Assembly (NCBI GenBank): GCA_964533505.1
Contig: CAZHKA010000023.1
Location: 1-32,000, forward strand
Reading direction: 5' to 3'
Source: an uncultured Candidatus Bathyarchaeia archaeon
GTDB lineage: Archaea > Thermoproteota > Bathyarchaeia > 40CM-2-53-6
DNA: 32,000 nt
The notes beneath the pieces were generated by a model that saw only the letters and a program-made list of their open reading frames with translations, was not told the origin of the DNA and searched no databases. Both the position numbers and the translations under genes were made by a program. Shown in pieces: positions 3,487-28,335 of this stretch (positions are counted from its first letter, which is position 1; every line of letters begins with the position of its first letter).

Positions 3487-4581
3487 CTAGGCTACTACCT
3501 TCTTGAGGTATTGAGCGTCTCCCCTGGGTCTTCGCTCTTTCCAGATTTGACAGAAGTCTGTGTTGTTTTCAAGGTACCGGTTCATGGCTACTTCCGAAAT
3601 TAATTTGGCGGACCGGGCGATATCAAGGAGGTTCCAAACGATTCCTCGTAGGACCAGGGCGAGTTTTCTATCTTGTACTGATGAAACTATCAGTTCCGTA
3701 ATTTCCTTCTCAGTTTCTTCAATTTTCTTTGAGCGGCCAATAGCAACGTTAGCGAGTTCTATATCCATCATGCTAAATGAGTCCATGGCGCTGTCGGTCA
3801 CCGAAAGCGTCTCACTGCCAAACTTTGCGACTGCGTCAATCACGGAGGAATATGTCTCGTACTTTCCGTCGGACAATGAAATTACTTGGCTTGCAATGGC
3901 TTCACTGCAATCGGCTATTTCTTCCAAGTACTTCGATACTGCTCGGTAACCGACCGCATGTGTTGCTGACTCTAGGCCTATGTGACGTGACAACGGTATT
4001 GTCGAAATCGCGCGGAAGATTTGGCGTAATATTAGCCAATAAAGTCGGTCGGCCTCGCTTTCGAGTTCTAGGACCTCCAACGCAAGTGAGCACTTGTGCT
4101 CTGTCAAGGCTTGCATGGTCCGTTCTAACATGGAAGTCGCAACTTTGTGAAGGCGTGAGATGAGTCCTGCTAAGGAGAATTTTCCAGGGTCAAGAAAGCA
4201 TTGTATGACTGTTTCAGTCGGCGTTTGTTCGACGATACCTAGCCCGCTCAGTCTCCTGGTGGAGTCGCGAATCGCGTTAAGCTGTTCTGAAGTTAGGTCC
4301 TTGGATGATGTAATGATGGTCGTATCGCGGCCGAGTATGTAACTCCCCGTAATCATCCGTGATAGAAGCTCGCTGTCTTTGCAAGCATCCACGTTGATCC
4401 TGCACACAGTCATTTCGTCGGCTTCAAAATCTGTGCCTGGGGTAACCACGAGTTCTCCGAATTCAGAGAGTCTAAGGGTGACAATGCCTCCTTGCTTCAA
4501 CCCAACTTGCCTCACCCAGTCCCTGGGTAAGGAAACGGTCAGGGTTGAGTGTCCAACGCGTTGAACCTTTCTTATTTCCAA
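3487..4581 (-). CDS. AbrB/SpoVT-domain plus PhoU-like-domain regulator (paralog 1)
   Basis: The N-terminus MEIRKVQRVGHSTLTVSLPRDWVRQVGLKQGGIVTL is a SpoVT/AbrB swapped-hairpin motif. The remainder is helical and PhoU-like (EADRLYWLILRQ...). Confidence 0.8.
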   Translation of the reverse strand: MEIRKVQRVGHSTLTVSLPRDWVRQVGLKQGGIVTLRLSEFGELVVTPGTDFEADEMTVCRINVDACKDSELLSRMITGSYILGRDTTIITSSKDLTSEQLNAIRDSTRRLSGLGIVEQTPTETVIQCFLDPGKFSLAGLISRLHKVATSMLERTMQALTEHKCSLALEVLELESEADRLYWLILRQIFRAISTIPLSRHIGLESATHAVGYRAVSKYLEEIADCSEAIASQVISLSDGKYETYSSVIDAVAKFGSETLSVTDSAMDSFSMMDIELANVAIGRSKKIEETEKEITELIVSSVQDRKLALVLRGIVWNLLDIARSAKLISEVAMNRYLENNTDFCQIWKERRPRGDAQYLKKVVA

Positions 4582-12560: not shown

Positions 12561-13634
12561 GTGCCGGTTTTGGAAGCTCGAAAGGTTCAACGTGTCGGTT
12601 ATTCCACGCTTACAGTATCGCTCCCAAGAGACTGGGTTGAGGATGTAAAGCTCAAGGCCGGTGACATAGTCTCCATAAAACGAGAGGATGACGGGTCGCT
12701 CAAGCTTGTCCCCGGAACGGAACACAAGCGGGACGAGGTGAGAAATTGCATCGTAAATGCCGATCTATGCAATTCCCCACATCTCTTGACGCGAGTAATC
12801 ACGGCTAATTACATTCTAGGTCACGACACTATCCAGATCGTCGCCAAGGAAGAACTGAAGCGAGAGCATCTGGAGGAAATACGCTCAACGACACAACGCC
12901 TTACCGGGCTCAGCATAGTCGAACAAACAATGAAACAAGTGACACTGCAAAGCTTCGTTGACCCTACGCGATTTCCAATATACGGCCTGATGCGGCGCCT
13001 ACACATCATCCTTACTTCAATGCTCGACCTATCGCTCAAGGCTTTAGTCGAGAGAAGGCCGGAGCTTGCCGCCGAAGTCGCCCATATGGAAGAAGAGTCC
13101 GATAGGATATACTGGCTGATCGTCAGACAACTTCTCCTTGCAATCCGCGACAGGAGCGTGGGAACTAAAATCGGAATAGAATCACCGGTGCACATCGCGG
13201 GCAACAGGGTAGTTGCCAAGACCCTTGAGGAGATGGCGGATTCCGCGGAAAGTGTCGCAAACGAAGTCATCGCCTTGAAGGATCGACAGATCAATAGTGA
13301 GTCAATTCTTACTGACGTCGCGAAGTTCGGTGCTCAGACAGTCAGAGTCTCAGACCAGACAATGAAAGCTCTGCTCACGGGCGACATCTCCTTAGCGAAT
13401 TCAGCCGTCGAAATGGTCGAAGAAGCTGAGGAAGATGAGAGAAAGTTAACGCAGAAAGTTCTCGCACACGTAAAGGACCCTGCCTCGGCCGCAGGCTTGA
13501 GAATCATCGTCTGGAACTTAGGGCAGGTCACTAAGTTCTGCCGAATGATTGGTGAGGTAACCATAAACCGTGTGCTGGAGAAACCTTCGCCTATCTGTGA
13601 GTACCTCCCAGTTCCTGAAGCTCGAGCAGCTTAA
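12561..13634 (+). CDS. AbrB/SpoVT-domain plus PhoU-like-domain regulator (paralog 2)
   Basis: (M)EARKVQRVGYSTLTVSLPRDWVEDVKLKAGDIVSI aligns with the 3487..4581 product along its whole length. The likely start is TTG 12570, by analogy with paralog 1. Confidence 0.8.
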   Translation: MPVLEARKVQRVGYSTLTVSLPRDWVEDVKLKAGDIVSIKREDDGSLKLVPGTEHKRDEVRNCIVNADLCNSPHLLTRVITANYILGHDTIQIVAKEELKREHLEEIRSTTQRLTGLSIVEQTMKQVTLQSFVDPTRFPIYGLMRRLHIILTSMLDLSLKALVERRPELAAEVAHMEEESDRIYWLIVRQLLLAIRDRSVGTKIGIESPVHIAGNRVVAKTLEEMADSAESVANEVIALKDRQINSESILTDVAKFGAQTVRVSDQTMKALLTGDISLANSAVEMVEEAEEDERKLTQKVLAHVKDPASAAGLRIIVWNLGQVTKFCRMIGEVTINRVLEKPSPICEYLPVPEARAA

Positions 13635-13647
13635 CCTTATTGAATGA

Positions 13648-14073
13648 CTACTTTCGTAGAGCTTTGCCGATCATCACAAGGTCCGAGCGTTCCTCGTAAC
13701 CACATGCACTGAAGAAATGCAGAGACGTAGTGTTAGAATGGTAAATCTGAGCGTTCACTCTCTTCGCGCCCTTGCTTGCTAGCCGCTCCTCCAACTCACG
13801 GATAAGCTCGTTCGCTATGCCAAGTCTCTGATGCGACGGTTTCACAGCGAGATGATAAATCCATCCCCGCCGCCCATCCCAGCCGCCCATAACAGTTCCC
13901 ACAAGATCGCTTCCGTCCCTGGCCACGAGGAAGAGGTCAGGGTCCCTCTGGAGCTTCAACCGTATACCCTCCAAGTCATCCCCGGGCCTAAGAACCAACC
14001 CAGCTTCCTTCCATAGTCGTACAACCGAATCGTATTCCGCGAGATCAAATTCATTGATTCGGACGCTTGACAA
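13648..14073 (-). CDS. GNAT-family N-acetyltransferase
   Basis: GWIYHLAVKPSHQRLGIANELIRELEERL is the acetyl-CoA-binding motif A. 141 aa. Confidence 0.85.
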   Translation of the reverse strand: MSSVRINEFDLAEYDSVVRLWKEAGLVLRPGDDLEGIRLKLQRDPDLFLVARDGSDLVGTVMGGWDGRRGWIYHLAVKPSHQRLGIANELIRELEERLASKGAKRVNAQIYHSNTTSLHFFSACGYEERSDLVMIGKALRK

Positions 14074-14105
14074 TCAACTCACTCATGTCGCTTGTAGAGG
14101 TATTA

Positions 14106-14132
14106 GCGCCGCCGGCAGGATTCGCATCTACG
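14106..14132 (-). repeat. Fragment resembling the 3' end of tRNA-Asn (possible distal att site)
   Basis: gcgccgccggcagg (14106..14119) is identical to 28202..28215, which covers the first C of the CCA, the discriminator, the 3' acceptor strand and the 3' T-stem strand. It is in the same orientation, and partial similarity continues into the T-loop. No complete tRNA can be folded here. Confidence 0.35.
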
Positions 14133-14344
14133 TAGGTGAATTTTAAGGACACGGGAAAACCGGTTCAATTTTGGTCACCCGCACCACCACACCCACACAC
14201 ACACGAAAAAATCGAACGAACGACGGTTCACCTATTCCCTTTTCAAAGGTAGTCTAGCGAACAAATTACGACGGATGCGGCGATGAGTACACACACCATG
14301 CTTCCGACAATTGGGCGTGGAGTTTCTACTCATGAAATTTGTCA

Positions 14345-15105
14345 GGTTCAATCCTTGTTTTGATGGATTAGTCTTCCCGACTATCTAGCACGAGCTTACG
14401 GTATGGGCGCAGGCATGTTTCAATCCTTGTTTTGATGGATTAGTCTTCCCGACTTGGGTACTCTGGGTCGCCTCAGATCAAGTTTTCTAGTTTCAATCCT
14501 TGTTTTGATGGATTAGTCTTCCCGACTATGCTTACCGCGTTTGGTTCGACGGTTTACATTATGTTTCAATCCTTGTTTTGATGGATTAGTCTTCCCGACC
14601 TCATGCAGGGCATGGACACTTTTGAGGATGTCAGTTTCAATCCTTGTTTTGATGGATTAGTCTTCCCGACAATGTCTCCGTTGCGGGAAAACCGTTGAGG
14701 AACCTGTTTCAATCCTTGTTTTGATGGATTAGTCTTCCCGACATAGACCACGTAATCGTTGAGTGAATCGTAGTAGCGTTTCAATCCTTGTTTTGATGGA
14801 TTAGTCTTCCCGACCGAATTGGATGCAAGGGGTACCTCCGCCTGCACGCGTTTCAATCCTTGTTTTGATGGATTAGTCTTCCCGACGGATTTCTATAATT
14901 TGTTGGGCAGACAGTAGAGGGTTTCAATCCTTGTTTTGATGGATTAGTCTTCCCGACTATAACGTGATAGTTTGAGTTTGGCCTACACCGAAAGCGTTTC
15001 AATCCTTGTTTTGATGGATTAGTCTTCCCGACTTACTACGATAATGATGTCGAACATGTGTATATCGCGTTTCAATCCTTGTTTTGATGGATTAGTCTTC
15101 CCGAC
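14345..15105 (-). CRISPR. CRISPR array with 11 repeats of 37 bp and 10 spacers of 34-38 bp
   Basis: The plus-strand repeat is gtttcaatccttgttttgatggattagtcttcccgac. Repeats start at 14345, 14417, 14490, 14563, 14634, 14706, 14778, 14850, 14921, 14996 and 15069. Only the repeat at 14345 is degenerate (ggttc...). On the minus strand the repeat is GTCGGGAAGACTAATCCATCAAAACAAGGATTGAAAC. Its ATTGAAAC end matches the usual Cas6 8-nt handle, so transcription runs on the minus strand from the 15106 side. Confidence 0.97.
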
Positions 15106-15263: not shown

Positions 15264-15866
15264 CTACTGTTTCGCGAAGTTTGGCGTAAGGGATCCGACT
15301 TCGCATACCTTTCTGTAGCAGCATGTGAGACAACGGTTGCTGTAGCGGGCTGGAGGGCATTTCCCTGACACTAAAGTTTCCTTTGTTCGTTGGAGAATAG
15401 AAAGCGCTAGGTTGCGTATCTCTTCGGTTATGTTGACTTGGATCTCACGTCTCCTTGTTCTGTCAAACACGACTATTGCCTTTCTAACTTTCTTTCCAAG
15501 GGCCTCTTCGACAAGAAGCGAGAGTAGCCCTAGTTGGGTCTTGGTTGTGGTTCCTACGATGGCGTGGTCTGAGTATTTGCGTTCTATGATTATGACCTCT
15601 GTAGGTGTCTCTATGGCTTCATCTACTTTTCCTGAAAACAGTTGGCTCTCTGAGAATAGTTGGAGTTCGGTGACTTTTTTTCCTCTGGTTTTTCTAGGCA
15701 TGTAGCTGAGGTTCGTTATTGAGTGGCGTTCGTGGTACGCGCGGCCTGCTTTGACGCTTCCCTGTTTTCCTTCATACTGTTTCAAGCCAAGAACAAGTTC
15801 GTAGTATGTGAATTTGGGGCAGAAGGCGTTTTCGAGAGCATTAGTTACGGTCAGGTTGGTGTTCAA
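15264..15866 (-). CDS. cas4: CRISPR-associated exonuclease Cas4
   Basis: N-terminal Cys (AFCPKFTYYE), a RecB-type GKVDEAI...VIIIERK motif, and C-terminal CLTCCYRKVC Fe-S cysteines. The likely start is TTG 15866, which overlaps the cas2 stop (TTGA). The track ORF extends to 15953. Confidence 0.8.
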   Translation of the reverse strand: MNTNLTVTNALENAFCPKFTYYELVLGLKQYEGKQGSVKAGRAYHERHSITNLSYMPRKTRGKKVTELQLFSESQLFSGKVDEAIETPTEVIIIERKYSDHAIVGTTTKTQLGLLSLLVEEALGKKVRKAIVVFDRTRRREIQVNITEEIRNLALSILQRTKETLVSGKCPPARYSNRCLTCCYRKVCEVGSLTPNFAKQ

Positions 15867-16159
15867 ACTACTTCTATTGCCTTCTCGTTTGATACGTATT
15901 CCATGTCGAAACCTTGCCCAATTATGGTTATTTTTCCAAAGCAGTGTTTGCATGCAAGTATGAGGTAGATTGATTCGGGCTTGCGCGCGGCCTGTTTAAG
16001 GTTCTCGACTAGATTCTTCTTTTGCTGTGAGGATAGGGAGCCGCAGAAGACGCTCTTCTGGATTCTCACGAATCCCGCATTCTTGAGCGTCTGCATGATT
16101 TGTAGCCTCGTCTTATCGCTTGAGATATCGTAGACTGCATAGTACATGTTCTCCTTCAT
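15863..16159 (-). CDS. cas2: CRISPR-associated endoribonuclease Cas2
   Basis: MYYAVYDISSDKTRLQIMQTLKNAGFVRIQKSVFCGSL is the classical Cas2 beta1-alpha1-beta2 signature. 98 aa. Confidence 0.9.
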   Translation of the reverse strand: MKENMYYAVYDISSDKTRLQIMQTLKNAGFVRIQKSVFCGSLSSQQKKNLVENLKQAARKPESIYLILACKHCFGKITIIGQGFDMEYVSNEKAIEVV

Positions 16160-16163
16160 GAGG

Positions 16164-16982
16164 TCATGCCTCAGTTATGAACCGTTGAAGTAGCTTTCGG
16201 CAGTATTCCCAAGTATCCCTCTGAATCGGACGCGATAGCTCACCGATATATCGTGTCATCGCGTTTCGTCGGCCTTCTTTTGACAGGTAGACTTCGGTGT
16301 CTGAGCCTCTTTCTTCAAACCAAGAGTCTCTTATGATTCTCTTCGTGAACATCGTGATAACTAGTCGGTCAACTCTTGGTCGGAAGATCTCTATTATGTC
16401 AAAGACGAGTGTTGGTTTGCCGTAGGCGTCGGCGTGGTAGATTCCGGCGTTCGGATCTAGCCCAGAGAGTATCACGATCTTCTCGATGTCTGAATAGGCG
16501 TAGCCGTAGAGGTAGTTCAGAATCGAGTTGAACTCGTCTCTTGCGGGCTTTCTGCTTCGCTGTTCAAACACGTACTTGGTTGGGAGTATAGATGATATGG
16601 CTTTGAAGTATTCTGAGGCTGCGAATCCTTCCAATCCGAGGAGAGACTGTTTGAATTGCGGTGTGAATTTAAACGAACTAAGCTGCATGAGTGTTGATTG
16701 TATGTTATGAATCGCTTGGTTCAGTGTTTCTGTTCCGGCCTTCCTGTTCTTTCTGAGATGGCTGAGTAATCTCTTCTGTTCCGTGAGTTTAGTGGTCACG
16801 ATTGTCCTTGATATTTCAAAAGCCAGTTGCGAATCCTGGTTGAGGTACTGCCCTCGTCGAATCTCAGTTGCTCTTCCGGGTGCACTGGCCCAGAACCTTC
16901 CGAAGGGTCTGCCAGACCAATCGGCAAAAACAAGTTGTATTCCTTTCTCGAGACAGAGAGCAGCCGCTTGTGTGCTCACCAA
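16164..16982 (-). CDS. cas1: CRISPR-associated endonuclease Cas1; the 5' end (16983..17088) is disrupted
   Basis: GLDPNAGIYHADAYGKPTLVFDIIEIFRP and surrounding helices are Cas1 catalytic-domain motifs. The intact ORF lacks about 35-45 N-terminal residues, and remnants of them are visible upstream in shifted frames from ATG 17088. Confidence 0.85.
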   Translation of the reverse strand: MVSTQAAALCLEKGIQLVFADWSGRPFGRFWASAPGRATEIRRGQYLNQDSQLAFEISRTIVTTKLTEQKRLLSHLRKNRKAGTETLNQAIHNIQSTLMQLSSFKFTPQFKQSLLGLEGFAASEYFKAISSILPTKYVFEQRSRKPARDEFNSILNYLYGYAYSDIEKIVILSGLDPNAGIYHADAYGKPTLVFDIIEIFRPRVDRLVITMFTKRIIRDSWFEERGSDTEVYLSKEGRRNAMTRYIGELSRPIQRDTWEYCRKLLQRFITEA

Positions 16983-19488: not shown

Positions 19489-19933
19489 AAAGATCAAGCG
19501 GGCGTTTCAATTCTAATGTAATAAGAGTTCCTGATGGTTCTCGGTTAGCTCTCCACTTTCGTTGCAGACCACCGAATCGGAATATTAGACTTGGCTCTAA
19601 CGCAGAATACTCTGATACCAATGACACCAAACTGTGTGAAATGTGGTAGCCCAATGCGGTTGTTGTAGAGCTTCACCAAGCTGAAGGGTGAGAAGCGGGT
19701 TACAATTCGTTATACCCCACCCCAACCCAAAAGGGGGTACAGAGATTTCCCGGCTCAGATTTCGTGGAAGTCAACGTTCATCAGCGGCTCTGAGAAGAGC
19801 CAATCTTTCTTCTAAGAGCAAATACATGGTTTTCGGGGATTTGGATTTTCACGAAAGCCTCTCTTTCTACTCAGGCTCAACAATAACGTAAGTTGTAAAT
19901 CTCTAGTGAACCGATTAGGCTAGGGGTAAGGGT

Positions 19934-20404
19934 ACGGGTAAGTCTAAGGGAATTTTTCTTCTTTCTGCATGCTTCCTACTGCTAACAATAATTGAGGGAG
20001 TTCGCGCTCAACCGGGCATCACCGTTACCACGGACAAGAGCACTTATCATCCTGGCGACTCGGTCATCATCACCATTACGATTTCGAGCGTACCCTCCGA
20101 CACGTGCTTCCCCGTCGGAATAACTCCTATCACATCTCAGAATTTGCCTCTCTATTCTATTGGGGAGGTCTGTGGTTTGGGCGGTAAGTTGGCATGGACG
20201 ATTCCCAACAACGCAACGCTTGGCCTTTATGATGTCGAGGTCAGCACAGCCCCGGCGTCAGGGTTTAACGCATATGAATCATACGCTGTGTTCACAGTGA
20301 CAGGCCCGACACCCGTACCTGAAACACCATCAGTTCTAGGGTTACTACTTCCGGCATTGCTAGTAGGAATCTACGTCTCAAGAAGAAAGAGAACAGTTAG
20401 GTGA
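19934..20404 (+). pseudogene. Secreted Ig-like protein with a PEP-CTERM-like C-terminal sorting signal (paralog 1); the start codon is apparently mutated to ACG
   Basis: The frame is open from 19919. It encodes a signal peptide KGIFLLSACFLLLTIIEGVRAQPGITVTTDKSTYHPGDSV that is collinear with the 24683 paralog. ACG (19934) stands where the paralog has ATG, and the only canonical start (TTG 20144) would delete the signal peptide. The C-terminus is PVPETPSVLGLLLPALLVGIYVSRRKRTVR. Confidence 0.55.
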
Positions 20405-20425: not shown

Positions 20426-20515
20426 TTAGTTAGTAACTACGACCATCTGCTGTCCACAACAGTTTTCCGCCACAACCGCCTCTCTTCCGCATGCGGCACA
20501 TCTGTACACGGGCAT
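20426..20515 (-). CDS. Candidate 29-aa Cys-rich mini-protein
   Basis: GGAGGTGAGG is followed by ATG, giving MPVYRCAACGREAVVAENCCGQQMVVVTN. The 96-aa track ORF upstream of this ATG runs through the conserved non-coding module and is unlikely to be coding. Confidence 0.3.
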   Translation of the reverse strand: MPVYRCAACGREAVVAENCCGQQMVVVTN

Positions 20516-20713
20516 CAGAACCTCACCTCCAGACAAAAAGCTCCGCATCACTAAGCGCCCATTGATGCGTATATTTGATTTTCCCATCTGCGAACCGTAT
20601 TGGATATGCATCCCGTGTATCCGAAGGTCTGAATTTATGGCGTTTGGGTTGATTTTGTATTGGAGTTGGGTTTCGAGAGAATTGGGCTTCGCCCGTGTAT
20701 GCGTGGAGTATAA

Positions 20714-20758
20714 CAAAATAAGAAAATAAGGCGGAACGGCCCGCCGCTCGTGCGAGCC
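20714..20758 (-). terminator. Putative terminator after sORF A: two GC hairpins plus a T-tract
   Basis: On the minus strand: GCTCG-CA-CGAGC, then GGCGG-GCCGTT-CCGCC, then TTATTTTCTTATTTTG. Conserved in copy B (27467..27511), where the only change falls in a loop. Confidence 0.4.
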
Positions 20759-20845
20759 CTAAGCTACGATTTCCTCTTGTCGAATGTTCTTGTCGTGCTC
20801 AGTATCTAGTCTCATTCTAACTTTCTTTTTTGGTCTCGGCGCCAT
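20759..20845 (-). CDS. Small basic peptide, family member A (28 aa)
   Basis: AGGAGGTGTTTACAG precedes the ATG. The product is MAPRPKKKVRMRLDTEHDKNIRQEEIVA. Confidence 0.45.
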   Translation of the reverse strand: MAPRPKKKVRMRLDTEHDKNIRQEEIVA

Positions 20846-21092
20846 CTGTAAACACCTCCTATCATTAACCGGGAAGGCCTAAGCATGTCGGCATATAAGG
20901 GGAGTTGGAGATACAGTCGAAATAGGTAATTATACTCCATTTCCACCCAGTAGAATAGGGGCGAAGGGTATCCTTGTTGACGTGGCCGGGCAAGATGCCT
21001 TCTATAGATGAAGCTCACGCAACTGCGAAATCTTTGTTAGGTATGAGCTTTCTTGCGGTCAAGCAACCTACACTCCTTACCTCAGTCCTAGC

Positions 21093-22938: not shown

Positions 22939-23979
22939 ATGACGTTTAGGAAACCCGCTAGACTAAAACGAAAAGACATAGTAGCGGTCCTCTCGCCGTC
23001 GAAGGGGCTTCCTAGCAAATTCCCTCAGGTGTACGAGCTTGGAGTAAGGAATCTTGAGAAACTCGGACTAGTTGTGAAGGAATACCCAACAGCCAGGGCT
23101 GATAATCAATTTCCAATTACGAGAATCCCAGGAAGCGGGCGGAGGATGTGAACAATGCGTTCGCTGATCGGGAAGTCAAGGCTATCGTATGTACGATTGG
23201 AGGAGATGAATCTGCAAGGATTCTTCCTTTACTAAACAATGAGGTCATTACAGCTAATCCAAAGATTCTGATGGGATACTCTGACATTACCACACTGCTG
23301 ACTTATTGCACACAACTCGGCTTGGTCACCTTTCACGGTCCCACGATTATGGCCGGTTTCTCGCAGCTTAACTATCTACCAAGGGCTTTCGCTGACCACG
23401 TTTCGGATCTTCTGTTCGACCCAAAGCCAACGTATCTCTACGAGTCCTATGACGAATATTCTGACGGTTACCCTGACTGGACGGACGTAACCAACTTGGG
23501 TAAAGTCAAAACCACCAAGAAGCAATACAGGCTGGAACTGGTTGCAGGGAAACTCCTGCGCACAAGGGGAGCTGTTCGGCGGATGCATCGAGGTATTGGA
23601 GTTCGTTAAAGGGACACCCTATTGGCCAAGACCAGACTTCTGGGAAGGAAAGATTCTCTTTCTGGAAACATCAGAAGAGAAACCGAGCATAACGAACGTC
23701 CAGCGATGGTTGCGCAATTACGGGTTGCACGGAATTTTTGGCAAGATAGGCGGCTTGCTCTTCGGAAGAGCTAGGGACTACTCGGAACCAGAAAAGATGC
23801 AGTTGGATAATGTCATCGTTTCTGTCGTAGCAAAGGAATTCAATCGACCTGACCTACCGATTGTCTCGAACATGGACTTTGGTCACACAGACCCTCAGTT
23901 CATTCTACCCTTAGGAGTGCTAGCTCAAGTTGACTGTCAGGATAAGAAGTTCAGATTGCTGGAATCTGCTGTTCTCTGA
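22939..23979 (+). pseudogene. S66 peptidase (LD-carboxypeptidase / MccF-like) split by two frameshifts
   Basis: Three consecutive track ORFs (22939..23151, 23148..23609, 23542..23979) together form one S66 protein: KDIVAVLSPS..., RAEDVNNAFADREVKAIVCTIGGDES..., GYSDITTLL, GELFGGCIEVL..., ILFLETSEEKP..., NMDFGHTDPQFILPLG. The frame changes near 23105 and near 23550. Confidence 0.75.
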
Positions 23980-24682: not shown

Positions 24683-25159
24683 GTGAGTATGAGTAGGTTT
24701 AAGGGGATTTTTCTTCTTCTTGCATGCGTCCTACTGCTAACAATAATGGGATTAGCCCATGCTCAAGGGTCATCTATCACTGTAACGACGGATAAGACCA
24801 CTTATAGTCCCGGAGATACTGTCCGCGTAACCGTTACTGTGACTGGCCCAATCACCGGCCCAGGCTTAACCGTTGAAATTGTGCCTGTGCCAATGTCTTC
24901 AGGTCTATTCCCGGTTGCAGCGGGAACTCTCTCCGTCAGCGGAGGCACCTTAGCATTGACACTTCCTAATAGCACAACGCCCGGCCACTATGACGTTGGG
25001 GTAGTAGCAGAAGAGGGAGGAACATTCACCCTGGACCCGGCCGTTGGAGTCACGGTGACAAAACTGACACCGGTACCTGAAACGCCCTCAGCTCTTGGGC
25101 TACTGCTTCCGGCAATGTTAGCAGTGATAATCGTTCTAAGAAAAAATAGGTTAAGGTAG
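24683..25159 (+). CDS. Secreted Ig-like protein with a PEP-CTERM-like C-terminal sorting signal (paralog 2)
   Basis: Signal peptide MSRFKGIFLLLACVLLLTIMGLAHAQG, then ITVTTDKTTYSPGDTVRVTVTV. The C-terminus is a tripartite signal: PVPETPSALGLLLPAMLAVIIVLRKNRLR. Confidence 0.7.
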   Translation: MSMSRFKGIFLLLACVLLLTIMGLAHAQGSSITVTTDKTTYSPGDTVRVTVTVTGPITGPGLTVEIVPVPMSSGLFPVAAGTLSVSGGTLALTLPNSTTPGHYDVGVVAEEGGTFTLDPAVGVTVTKLTPVPETPSALGLLLPAMLAVIIVLRKNRLR

Positions 25160-25449: not shown

Positions 25450-25650
25450 TTACGCTTGTAACGATTTCGTAATCAGCGCAACAGCTTCTTCCATCGTGAT
25501 TGCTGCCCCGTCTCTTCTTGAGATGCTTCCTCTACCGGGAACATCTACTTCTGTTCCTTGTGCTAAGATCTCTACAGGCTTGGACTCTACCACGTATTTC
25601 CGTTGCCAATCTCCGCCTAGGCCGTTACAGTACGGCCAGGGGATTTCGTA
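25450..25650 (-). pseudogene. Degenerate paralog of the 26311..26484 CxxCxGxxG zinc-finger peptide
   Basis: The open frame YEIPWPYCNGLGGDWQRKY... follows an in-frame TAA. It has no ATG/GTG/TTG start, and the first Cys is replaced by Trp. Confidence 0.25.
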
Positions 25651-26310: not shown

Positions 26311-26484
26311 CTAAGGATCCGGGGCAAGAATTTTCCGTAGTCCGTGGCATCCACGGCATTCAACCCAGACGCCTGTTTCGGTTTCGACGGTTTGACCACG
26401 ATACTTTTTGGGTCCGAGCACCCATTGCCAATCTCCACTCATCCCGTTACAGTATGGGCATTGGATTTCCTCACGTCCGACCTC
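26311..26484 (-). CDS. Small DnaJ-CR-like zinc-finger peptide (CxxCxGxxG twice); start codon unclear
   Basis: The open frame EVGREEIQCPYCNGMSGDWQWVLGPKKYRGQTVETETGVWVECRGCHGLRKILAPDP has no canonical start. It begins right after the tiny ATG-ACT-TAA that overlaps the stop of the upstream ORF. Confidence 0.35.
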   Translation of the reverse strand, partial: EVGREEIQCPYCNGMSGDWQWVLGPKKYRGQTVETETGVWVECRGCHGLRKILAPDP

Positions 26485-27386: not shown

Positions 27387-27705
27387 TTTATGGCGCCTAG
27401 TCTGATTTTGTATTGGAGTTGGGTTTCGGAAGAATTGGGCTTCGCCCGTGTATGCGTGAAGTATAACAAAATAAGAAAATAAGGCGGAACGGCCCGCCGC
27501 TCGTACGAGCCTTAAGCAACGAATTCCTCTTGTCGAATGTTCTTGTCGTGTTCAGTACCTAACTTCATCTTAACTTTGCGTTTCTTAGCCAACCCCAAAC
27601 ACCTCCACTAATTGCCTAGAATGATCTGAGCGTCGTTTAGGCATATAAGGCAGCTTGGAGAAGAAGTCATAAAGGGAGAATATTCCGCATTTCCACCTAG
27701 TAGAA
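27387..27705 (-). repeat. Duplicated ~320-bp module, copy B
   Basis: See copy A (20634..20955). Shared elements are the TATA-like gcatataagg, catttccacc(c/t)agtagaa, the 3' half of the sORF, and the hairpins with T-tract. Confidence 0.85.
27512..27592 (-). CDS. Small basic peptide, family member B (26 aa)
   Basis: GGAGGTGTTTGGGG precedes the TTG. The product is (M)AKKRKVKMKLGTEHDKNIRQEEFVA. Confidence 0.45.
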   Translation of the reverse strand: MAKKRKVKMKLGTEHDKNIRQEEFVA

Positions 27706-27846
27706 CATACGGTTAAATAATCATGTCTCTTAATGGTGATTTTGGCGAGGCGAATTTGAATGGTGGACAAAAGGAAAGTCAAGTTGAATCTGCGTGTCTT
27801 GTTCCCTGACAAGGCAGGGACAGGTTAGCAAATGAGGTGAGCTTGA

Positions 27847-27945
27847 ATGGTGAAGAAGCGTATGGGCAAGAGGAGGAAGGTCAAGATGACACTTCAAGGT
27901 GGTCCTCCCCAAGCTGTCCCTGCCACGGACGAGTTAGTTGCTTGA
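27847..27945 (+). CDS. Small basic peptide, family member C (32 aa)
   Basis: GAGGTGAGCTTGA precedes the ATG. The product is MVKKRMGKRRKVKMTLQGGPPQAVPATDELVA, which shares the basic N-terminus and the acidic-hydrophobic xELVA C-terminus. Confidence 0.35.
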   Translation: MVKKRMGKRRKVKMTLQGGPPQAVPATDELVA

Positions 27946-27994: not shown

Positions 27995-28084
27995 ATGGCG
28001 AAGAAGCGGAAGAGTAAGATGAAGTTGGACGCACGTTGGAACCCATCTGGACGTAAGCTGCAAAGAAGTTGGAAGTTCCAGTGA
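27995..28084 (+). CDS. Small basic peptide, family member D (29 aa)
   Basis: GGGAGATGAAGTTGC precedes the ATG. The product is MAKKRKSKMKLDARWNPSGRKLQRSWKFQ. The N-terminus is near-identical to member B, but the C-terminus differs. Confidence 0.35.
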   Translation: MAKKRKSKMKLDARWNPSGRKLQRSWKFQ

Positions 28085-28199
28085 GGAGCCTAAGCCGCTA
28101 GTCACCCTCGGCTTGAGGGCATTGTAATTTCCACACCTTTATCGAGTGTATTGTGTATTGTTATGGCATAAGGAATAGGAAAAGCCGTAGGTTGGATAG

Positions 28200-28335
28200 T
28201 GGCGCCGCCGGCAGGTATCGAACCTGCGACCAACGGGTGTCTGCCCGTTTAACAGCTTCAGCCCCTTCAAGGTTTGTTGAGGGTCCGCTGCTCCACCACT
28301 GAGCTGTCGTCTGCGCTGTTCGCGTATACGGCGGC
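28200..28335 (-). tRNA. tRNA-Asn(GUU) with three putative introns and an encoded CCA
   Basis: The reverse complement starts GCCGCCG and ends CGGCGGC-G-CCA. D arm: GCTC-AGTGGTG-GAGC. T arm: GCAGG-TTCGATA-CCTGC. Variable loop: TGGTC. The anticodon loop CTGTTAA is flanked, after removing the insertions, by GCGGG/CCCGT. The insertions are about 22 nt (about 28306..28327), 28 nt (28257..28284) and 11 nt (28239..28249). Confidence 0.75.

Follow-up and report, generated by a model that had tools for sequence, protein, structure and literature searches.

Background

The ldr/rdl and Sib/Ibs loci of Escherichia coli are type I toxin-antitoxin (TA) repeats, in which hydrophobic membrane toxins are under the control of cis-antisense RNA. 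In the trpL and hisL attenuators, a short open reading frame (ORF) stands directly before a hairpin and a U-tract. Intrinsic terminators are likewise made of a hairpin and a U-tract, archaeal termination signals are oligo-T, and eL41, bS22 and bL37 are very small basic ribosomal proteins. Here, we focused on a short module present as two copies (A and B) in a stretch of 32,000 nucleotides (nt) from an uncultured Candidatus Bathyarchaeia archaeon (GenBank assembly GCA_964533505.1, contig CAZHKA010000023.1, positions 1 to 32,000); this whole stretch is called the window below. Bathyarchaeia are abundant and mostly uncultured archaea of peat and sediment, and their annotation is almost all made by homology.

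Among archaeal microproteins, Methanosarcina mazei sP26 (23 residues) was reported to bind glutamine synthetase (bioRxiv 10.1101/2020.05.06.080432; PMC11456600). Lys/Arg motifs of the nuclear localisation signal (NLS) type have been described in archaeal ribosomal proteins (bioRxiv 10.1101/671966). We assessed the distribution of the module outside the window, its coding signature, its conserved non-coding features and the origin of the uneven similarity between its two copies. The unit is probably a protein-coding cassette (i.e. promoter, frame of 26-28 codons and terminator), and the near-identity of the 3′ parts of A and B would derive from conversion.

The repeated cassette and its family

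The two repeats (20634-20955 and 27387-27705, minus strand) are collinear and direct. An upstream box, a TATA-like element, a GGAGGTG sequence, a small ORF (sORF), hairpins and a T-tract were all recovered at the places given for them in an earlier note on this DNA, whose view of the module as a genuine genetic unit of promoter-like region, Shine-Dalgarno (SD) sequence, sORF and terminator-like 3′ structure we share. The limits retained here are those conserved in the family, i.e. from the upstream box to the terminator T-tract (copy A, 20708..20955; copy B, 27461..27705; both minus strand), with block edges set by a conservation profile of 55 unique copies aligned over 560 nt. Within the window, the 18-nt core of the ORF matches only copies A and B (0.05 matches expected).

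The earlier note had proposed to look for further copies, and many were found. The peptide core EHDKNIRQEE was back-translated and scanned over one genome per prokaryotic species, which returned seven loci, all from three Bathyarchaeia metagenome-assembled genomes (MAGs). A second pattern, VKMxLGxEHDK, was scanned over the Joint Genome Institute (JGI) metagenomes and returned 73 loci on peat and wetland contigs. In all, the scans added 82 copies, seven in the MAGs and 75 on peat metagenome contigs, which with A and B makes a total of 84 cassette copies. The repeat is a member of a multi-copy Bathyarchaeia family and not a private duplication; this family is previously undescribed and highly conserved, and the cassette is typical of Bathyarchaeia. 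No copies were found in IMG/VR with either peptide pattern, and BLAST of the module against phage and plasmid records gave no match. The module also resembles no recognised RNA family, as the earlier note had stated: Rfam covariance searches at gathering and permissive thresholds gave chance-level matches (no better than 17.3 bits inside copy A, and 18.9 bits when a larger region around B was searched), far below gathering scores.

Several contigs hold two copies 0.3-9 kb apart and two MAGs hold at least three copies each; copies less than 10 kb apart are common (the window and loci L001, L010, L040 and L049). The copies sort into 26 groups with unrelated downstream flanks. All-against-all clustering of the flanking ORFs identified syntenic flanks encoding CysRS, a NUDIX hydrolase, an M20 peptidase, a beta-carbonic anhydrase, a GyrI-like protein, DUF6754 and rubrerythrin, and no universal neighbour or shared functional theme emerged among these clustered ORFs. 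A co-oriented secreted-protein gene lies downstream of the cassette in L001, L007 and L038, and a secreted-protein gene adjoins copy A, as its homologs adjoin the copies of L042, L050 and L075. Linkage of the cassette to tRNA genes was considered and rejected: ARAGORN calls a single tRNA in 80 loci (L040), so that the tRNA beside copy B is not a general feature.

Reading frame and peptide

sORF A (20759..20845, minus strand; 28 codons plus stop; MAPRPKKKVRMRLDTEHDKNIRQEEIVA) has an N-terminus atypical for the family and scores 62.7 bits against the family hidden Markov model (HMM). sORF B (27512..27592, minus strand; 26 codons plus stop, TTG start; (M)AKKRKVKMKLGTEHDKNIRQEEFVA) is the canonical form and scores 71.2 bits. 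The family peptide, written in the same manner, is (M)AKKRKVKMKLGTEHDKNIRQEEMVA, with the consensus (M/L)AKKRKVKM(K/S/R)LG(T/R/K)EHDKN(I/V)(R/K)QEE(M/L/V/Q)VA. It is hydrophilic, rich in Lys, Arg, Glu and Asp, and devoid of any hydrophobic segment. The ORF falls below the length handled by standard gene callers and is unannotated.

The peptide is the best-conserved part of the family. Among 59 unique family coding sequences, the start codon is ATG (37) or TTG (22) at the same position, the stop falls at codon 27 in all 59 canonical copies, the SD is fixed, and the indel of copy A is in frame. At codons outside the search pattern, the summed minor-allele fraction reaches 2.85 at third codon positions versus 0.76 at first and 0.59 at second positions, and restricting the set to one representative per flank group leaves this coding signature unchanged. 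Synonymous switches also occur at first positions, with TTR and CTR codons for Leu and AGR and CGN codons for Arg, and amino acid replacements are conservative (K/R, I/V, M/L/V). The six-fold switches at Leu and Arg are diagnostic because wobble positions are common to the sense and antisense frames. An antisense ORF (MFLSCSV...) was accordingly tried as a candidate and rejected, since its ATG is absent in 10 of the 59 copies and the Leu/Arg switches are silent in the sense frame only. Judged by this substitution pattern, the ORF is a genuine coding sequence under purifying selection on its amino acids.

An exhaustive HMMER search over 1.84 billion representative proteins yielded 12 matches which, except for a spurious repeat-protein (P0008), are proteins of 26-29 residues or mis-called N-terminal extensions of such proteins. 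The distant members of 26-29 residues (P0004-P0012, without the spurious P0008; e.g. MAPKKRKVKMRANTEHDKSFRYQGEEVVA and MAKGKAKRKVRMHVDAEHDKNVLQQETVA) keep the peptide pattern while their DNA changes. A protein-cluster look-up of the HMMER matches provided no names, a word-indexed protein search with a concatenated-peptide query returned a single match, and the peptide strings were not found in the searchable literature.

Upstream region

Every family copy carries the same upstream control region of ~90 nt. Its distal part is the upstream box (TTCTACTGGGTGGAAATG at 20938..20955 in copy A and TTCTACTAGGTGGAAATG at 27688..27705 in copy B, minus strand), which reads TTCTACT(G/A)GGTGGAAATG in both copies; the exact motif GGTGGAAATG occurs in the window at these two sites only. 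In its family form, TTCTAC-N3-GTAGAAATG, the box is a quasi-palindrome (TTCTAC-N3-GTRGAA) whose right half, GGTRGAAATG, is the most conserved, while its left half is a weaker mirror of the right one (at least 4 of 6 symmetric positions in 40 of 57 copies). We regard the box as a putative regulator-binding site upstream of the promoter. The TATA-like element CCTTATATGC (20891..20900 in copy A, 46 nt before the start codon, and 27641..27650 in copy B, minus strand; family consensus GTTAAATAC) is followed ~25 nt downstream by a conserved TTCTAG (27621..27616 in copy B). The latter is the predicted transcription start, its spacing from the TATA-like element being that of an archaeal promoter layout; the same spacing and the archaeal TATA consensus suggest a promoter role for the TATA-like element. 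The SD-like GGAGGTG (20853..20859 and 27600..27606, minus strand) is invariant across the family.

In the conservation profile, conservation begins at TTCTACnnGGTAGAAATG and runs unbroken to the T-rich tract ~50 nt past the stop, with none outside these limits. The strongest non-coding positions on the box side are GGTAGAAATG, the A/T-rich GAATATT and then CTCCAAGCC; those of the promoter and leader are the TATA box TTAAATAC, the TTCTAG and TGGAGGTG, which precedes the start codon by 7-8 nt. A nucleotide profile built from box to SD matched only family sORFs in ~530 kb of related DNA, and RNAalifold found no conserved structure in the upstream block on either strand; the block is therefore read as a DNA-level promoter and probable regulator-binding sequence. 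A wider regulon of the box was also considered and rejected, since the upstream profile matches family sORFs only.

3′ hairpins and T-tract

The 3′ structure spans 20711..20757 in copy A and 27464..27510 in copy B (minus strand). It starts with a GCTCG-NA-CGAGC hairpin (20757..20746 and 27510..27499), with a CA loop in A and a TA loop in B, and continues with a GGCGG-GCCGTT-CCGCC hairpin (20745..20730 and 27498..27483), which is followed by TTATTTTCTTATTTTG; the structure closes with the T-rich tract. Of 66 unique family copies, 63 have a T-rich tract with one or two hairpins before it, and the median distance from the stop to the start of the tract is 36 nt. The hairpin adjacent to the T-tract is GC-rich: GGCGG...CCGCC is found in many copies, and other paralog groups form the same hairpin from CGAGGG...CCCTCG, GGTGGA...TCCAC or GCCCGG...CCGGGT. 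Most groups also have a first helix, formed by the last three codons (GAA-AUG-GUA-GC) and bases just past the stop, with the stop codon in its loop. In L077, the closest relative of the two window copies, the corresponding sequence is UCGUAGC...GCUACGA.

In alignment A6 (35 sequences), 82.6% of the cells of the pairs hold a base pair, compared with 33-54% in slid controls, and helix 2 is 95.4% paired. The pair at the third base of codon 24 covaries (GC 15, GU 6, AU 5). Changes on both sides affect 5 of 13 pairs, a number reached by 37 of 500 shuffles, and the covariation score is 0.160 vs 0.130, a value that none of 500 shuffles attained. Within the aligned subgroup, helix 2 hardly varies; between paralog groups, its sequence differs wholesale. 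Across the family, the 3′ hairpins are kept while their sequence changes; of the covariation that the earlier note had suggested looking for, a clear case was seen only at the one pair (GC/GU/AU) of the stop-codon hairpin. Family-level structural evidence for the 3′ hairpins is genuine, if modest, and of the sort that a terminator and mRNA-stabilising stem-loop would leave. The whole 3′ structure is a predicted intrinsic-type terminator, which may also stabilise a short mRNA; similar hairpin and T-tract sites follow other genes in the window.

Directly past the terminator of L077 (112-170), a tRNA-like sequence resembling a T-arm and acceptor (GCAGGTTCAAATCCGGCCCGGCC) was observed, on which ARAGORN makes no call.

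Mosaic similarity of the two copies

Identity between A and B varies along the module. It is at background over the 100 nt upstream of the box (49%), 65% from the box to the start codon and 57% over the 5′ half of the ORF, where a 6-nt in-frame indel also occurs. Over the 3′ half it climbs to 91%, and between the stop and the end of the T-tract to 98%; it is still 89% over the following 74 nt, and falls back to background (54%) in the next 100 nt. The similarity has sharp edges at both ends. The uneven conservation of the two copies is therefore real, and the contrast drawn in the earlier note between a diverged 5′ half of the ORF and a near-identical 3′ half with its non-coding tail agrees with these values.

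The explanation offered there does not hold in full. Some 115 nt of non-coding sequence had been taken as a conserved element, whereas family conservation ends at the T-tract, and the 74-nt extension beyond it (20634..20707 and 27387..27460, minus strand; C/A-rich on the A side) is common only to A and B. BLAST of the extension against the 80 related loci revealed no counterpart, and the homology of L077 to A and B ends exactly at the end of the T-tract. The extension includes a GGGC-GAA-GCCC hairpin (20694..20684 and 27447..27437, minus strand) and folds no better than shuffled sequences on either strand (z -0.79 and +0.25). It is best regarded as a probable conversion or duplication tract outside the family module. 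Selection on an RNA element rather than only on the peptide, as the earlier note had supposed, is also at odds with a peptide that is the most conserved feature and bears a clear coding signature. Of the two processes that it had named, gene conversion fits best and selection on a separate RNA element is disfavoured.

Comparison with other loci points in the same direction. The promoter and 5′ half of B are nearest to L070 and L072 (85%), which are positional orthologs of B because the adjacent sORFs D and C (see below) are collinear there. The 3′ half of B is nearest to A (94%) and L077 (92%), with only 81% identity to L070, and the 5′ part of copy A is at most 75% identical to any other copy. 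In six of seven other same-contig paralog pairs, the terminator and beyond show 45-65% identity, which makes the identity of A and B a local and recent event. A reverse mosaic was found in L014 and L058, located on the same 427-kb contig, with a promoter 99% identical, coding sequences 94-100% identical and an unrelated 3′ flank (46-65%). Partial conversion or duplication between paralogs therefore appears to be recurrent in the family. A recent event of this kind, i.e. a gene conversion or partial duplication between paralogs, would best account for the near-identity that A and B show between codon 13 and a point 74 nt beyond the terminator.

Constraint on synonymous sites

Across the family, synonymous variation is far lower over the 3′ half of the ORF than over its 5′ half. 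Among 26 flank-group representatives, codons A2, R5, K6 and L11 are fully mixed, while H15 is CAC (26/26), K17 AAG (25/26), N18 AAC (25/26), Q21 CAA (25/25), E23 GAA (24/26) and V25 GTA (23/26). In long ORFs from these loci, the two members of such codon pairs occur at ~45:55, and GTA is the rarest Val codon. Some nucleotide-level constraint beyond the peptide therefore acts on the 3′ half. The constraint on codons 24-26 is explained by the stop-codon helix and that on codons 14-23 (20777-20806 and 27530-27559, minus strand) by nothing tested here. This stretch holds two occurrences of (C)GACAAGA, which are 15 nt apart and lie in different frames. No site complementary to the invariant segment was found in the window, and RNAalifold found no conserved structure in the leader and coding sequence. 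The RNA-level idea of the earlier note thus gains partial family-level support for the 3′ half of the ORF, through this synonymous invariance, and none for the non-coding tail.

Proposed function and alternative explanations

In the mechanism that we propose, each repeat would be an autonomous monocistronic gene for a protein of 26-28 residues. Transcription would start from the TATA promoter and depend on, or be controlled by, a factor at the family-specific upstream box, and all copies would be induced together via this shared box. A short leader would carry the GGAGGTG ahead of an ATG or TTG start; with this strong SD, the unstructured purine-rich mRNA would be translated efficiently, and transcription would stop at the hairpin and T-tract. 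In the product, the Lys/Arg cluster KKRKVKM of the disordered N-terminus may serve to bind nucleic acid (RNA or DNA) or a nucleoprotein complex, for instance the ribosome, and the acidic helix EHDKNIRQEE with its hydrophobic -xVA end may contact a protein partner. The predicted binding to nucleic acid or nucleoprotein is a low-confidence guess.

Several points weigh against a peptide-coding cassette with a converted 3′ part. The near-invariance of synonymous sites in codons 14-23 is not predicted by a model of selection on the peptide only. Copies A and B themselves depart from the usual register of the stop-codon hairpin and form the local GCTCG-NA-CGAGC hairpin instead. The seeds of the search patterns were derived from the peptide, so that family statistics are biased at the amino acid level in the seeded codons, wobble positions being unbiased. 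The peptide matched nothing in Pfam, NCBIfam or PHROGs, nor did its profile match any PDB chain, archaeal ribosomes included, and its activity is therefore guessed from composition. The AlphaFold model is of low confidence (mean predicted local distance difference test score, pLDDT, 63.5); in it, the basic N-terminus is disordered and TEHDKNIRQEE forms a helix. Expression, transcript ends and the peptide product are predictions from the sequence. Finally, conversion was deduced from the window and related loci, a set that points to neither donor nor direction.

Near-fixation of codons 14-23 and 25 across 26 flank groups, under balanced genome codon usage, is what a dual-function RNA would explain: a transcript of ~150 nt would encode the microprotein and also act as RNA, its invariant purine-rich 3′ half of the ORF (GAGCACGACAAGAACAUUAGACAAGAGGAA) binding RNA or protein. 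The two occurrences of (C)GACAAGA fit this proposal, as do the unstructured leader and coding sequence, which would leave the segment accessible. We nevertheless hold it to be unlikely, since neither a complementary target in the window, nor an intramolecular partner, nor an Rfam match was found, codons 24-26 are already accounted for by the stop-codon hairpin, concerted evolution of the paralogs could also cut synonymous diversity, and the peptide signature shows that translation matters regardless. A leader-peptide attenuator, in which translation of the sORF would decide between termination and read-through into the downstream gene, could be recognised in a short Lys/Arg-rich ORF with a GC hairpin and T-tract within 14-17 nt, in a stop codon placed inside a hairpin that the terminating ribosome must open, and in the co-oriented secreted-protein gene that follows in L001, L007 and L038. 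However, RNAalifold finds only the terminator helix and no conserved antiterminator pairing, the downstream genes differ over the 26 flank groups and are often convergent, purifying selection bears on the whole peptide and not just on regulatory codons, and a TATA-like sequence and an SD stand ahead of the next gene downstream of copy A; attenuation is thus very improbable.

A multi-copy module of ~250-320 bp with its own promoter and small ORF, with copies often within 10 kb of one another and, in the window, in a low-GC interval bounded by tRNA-like repeats, also recalls a type I TA-like repeat (LDR, Sib/Ibs) or a miniature mobile element (miniature inverted-repeat transposable element, MITE). 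A hydrophilic, basic peptide without a hydrophobic helix is not that of such a toxin, and no antisense promoter or RNA is conserved: only sense-strand features are kept, and 10 of 59 copies have lost the antisense ATG. As for a MITE, terminal inverted repeats are absent, the ends are unrelated, and the copies stand at syntenic places in the chromosome, with housekeeping genes around them; none was found in viral, phage or plasmid collections. We give these two possibilities even less credit than attenuation. The last explanation, an incidental ORF within a non-coding RNA or a regulatory DNA repeat, would agree with an unannotated frame below gene-caller size, and third-position variation alone leaves the coding strand open, as sense and antisense share wobble positions. 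It is the least probable of all, because only the sense frame makes the first-position switches at Leu and Arg silent, the translation signals (SD, start and stop) are conserved, no indel shifts the frame, replacements are conservative, and distant members keep the peptide pattern as their DNA changes. A protein-coding cassette therefore stays our preferred reading. To a more ambitious version of it we attach little probability, i.e. a lineage-wide microprotein acting on a core nucleoprotein machine (bound to ribosome or RNA, with a dedicated regulon) and/or a dual-function mRNA whose GACAAGA-repeat 3′ half would act in trans or bind protein.

Other features of the window

Beyond what the earlier note had reported, three further diverged sORFs of the same kind lie on the plus strand beside copy B. 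The diverged paralog D (27847..27945; MVKKRMGKRRKVKMTLQGGPPQAVPATDELVA) has a basic N-terminus and an -ELVA end as in the family. The diverged paralog C (27995..28084; MAKKRKSKMKLDARWNPSGRKLQRSWKFQ; family HMM E=0.005) shares only the N-terminal motif and is followed by a hairpin (28105-28119). A possible remnant, E (27760..27828; MVDKRKVKLNLRVLFPDKAGTG), matches weakly (E=0.69), in a region whose arrangement differs from that of L070 and L029. L029, L070 and L072 carry D and C at 89-92% identity, and the promoter of D is there related to that of the cassette; in the window, other sequence stands in its place.

Convergent with sORF C, a probable intron-containing archaeal tRNA gene was observed at 28203-28314 (minus strand), missed by ARAGORN and scoring 27.7 bits with the Rfam tRNA model (gathering score 29). 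A degenerate tRNA-like fragment (14060-14200) shares with 28160-28330 a D-arm-like GTGGTGG.GC and the 3′ end CCTGCCGGCGGCGC, 14.1 kb apart in direct orientation. The 14-28 kb interval has a G+C content of 0.45-0.49 (0.51 in one 1-kb bin) vs 0.48-0.55 in most flanks, and contains CRISPR-cas genes, both cassette copies, pseudogenes and duplicated secreted-protein genes. This interval could represent an integrated island or a variable region; no integrase was identified. The CRISPR array (14345-15105) comprises 11 repeats of 37 nt (Rfam CRISPR-DR7) and adjoins cas4, cas2 and cas1 (15264-15953, 15863-16159 and 16164-16982, minus strand), and no CRISPR effector genes were identified among the window ORFs scanned.

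The paralogous putative secreted proteins (19921-20404 and 24683-25159, plus strand; repeats D3 and D4, 75-77% identical) both end in PVPETPS, a hydrophobic helix and a basic tail, resembling sorting signals of the archaeosortase/exosortase type. They gave no match to a sorting-domain model and only weak ones to MG2, A2M and 'choice-of-anchor V'. A 29-codon ORF at 20426-20515 (minus strand; MPVYRCAACGREAVVAENCCGQQMVVVTN), with its own GGAGGTGA and an upstream TATA-like AAATATAC, weakly matches a desulforedoxin-type FeS4 domain (Pfam PF06397, E=1.2e-4, just below cut-off). An LD-carboxypeptidase gene (Peptidase_S66; 23148-23979, plus strand) extends over two overlapping frames, lacks the first ~56 model positions of its N-terminal domain and is likely a pseudogene. 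A 48-nt direct repeat (D6; 25600-25647 and 26422-26469, 79% identical, 822 nt apart) was seen in the hypothetical-gene region between A and B. Two paralogs combining an AbrB/MazE-type DNA-binding domain with a PhoU domain (3487-4581, minus strand, and 12561-13634, plus strand) flank a 2-oxoacid:ferredoxin oxidoreductase cluster and an aminotransferase gene.

Implications and comparison with known systems

The family adds a missing gene, of a size below the gene-caller limit, to Bathyarchaeia annotations and is among the most strongly conserved sequences of its loci. Several copies per genome with the same elaborate upstream region usually mark a product that is required in large amounts or whose copies share tight control, and the family-specific box offers a clean cis-element for studies of archaeal transcription control. 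Its copies also provide worked examples of mosaic gene conversion between tiny paralogs, and remind us that the uneven conservation of two repeats can reflect a conversion tract and not selection, which only other genomes separate. The cassette is not a new kind of RNA element and has no direct bearing on a major open question.

Like intrinsic and oligo-T terminators, the cassette has a GC-rich stem followed by a T-rich tract; unlike intrinsic terminators, it adds an upstream hairpin that usually encloses the stop and the last three codons, and its terminator is a predicted one. Its sORF abuts a hairpin and T-tract as in trpL and hisL, but neither an antiterminator nor a fixed downstream operon accompanies it and the entire peptide is conserved. 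With ldr/rdl and Sib/Ibs, it has in common the form of a chromosomal repeat of a few hundred bp with a promoter, a tiny ORF and a structured 3′ end, and it differs from them by its hydrophilic, basic peptide and by the lack of a conserved antisense gene. In size and charge, the peptide is similar to eL41, bS22 and bL37, and its KKRKVK resembles the classical monopartite NLS-type basic cluster and the motifs of archaeal ribosomal proteins. Unlike ribosomal proteins, it is encoded by a multi-copy, scattered and apparently regulated gene, its C-terminal half is acidic and it has no homology in the PDB. M. mazei sP26 and the small proteome of this species share with the family the character of stand-alone archaeal genes of less than 30 residues missed by annotation, with short monocistronic mRNAs and condition-dependent regulation, both predicted for the cassette. 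The sequences themselves are not similar, and the Bathyarchaeia family is distinguished from sP26 by its multi-copy nature (2-3 copies or more per genome) and its shared upstream region.

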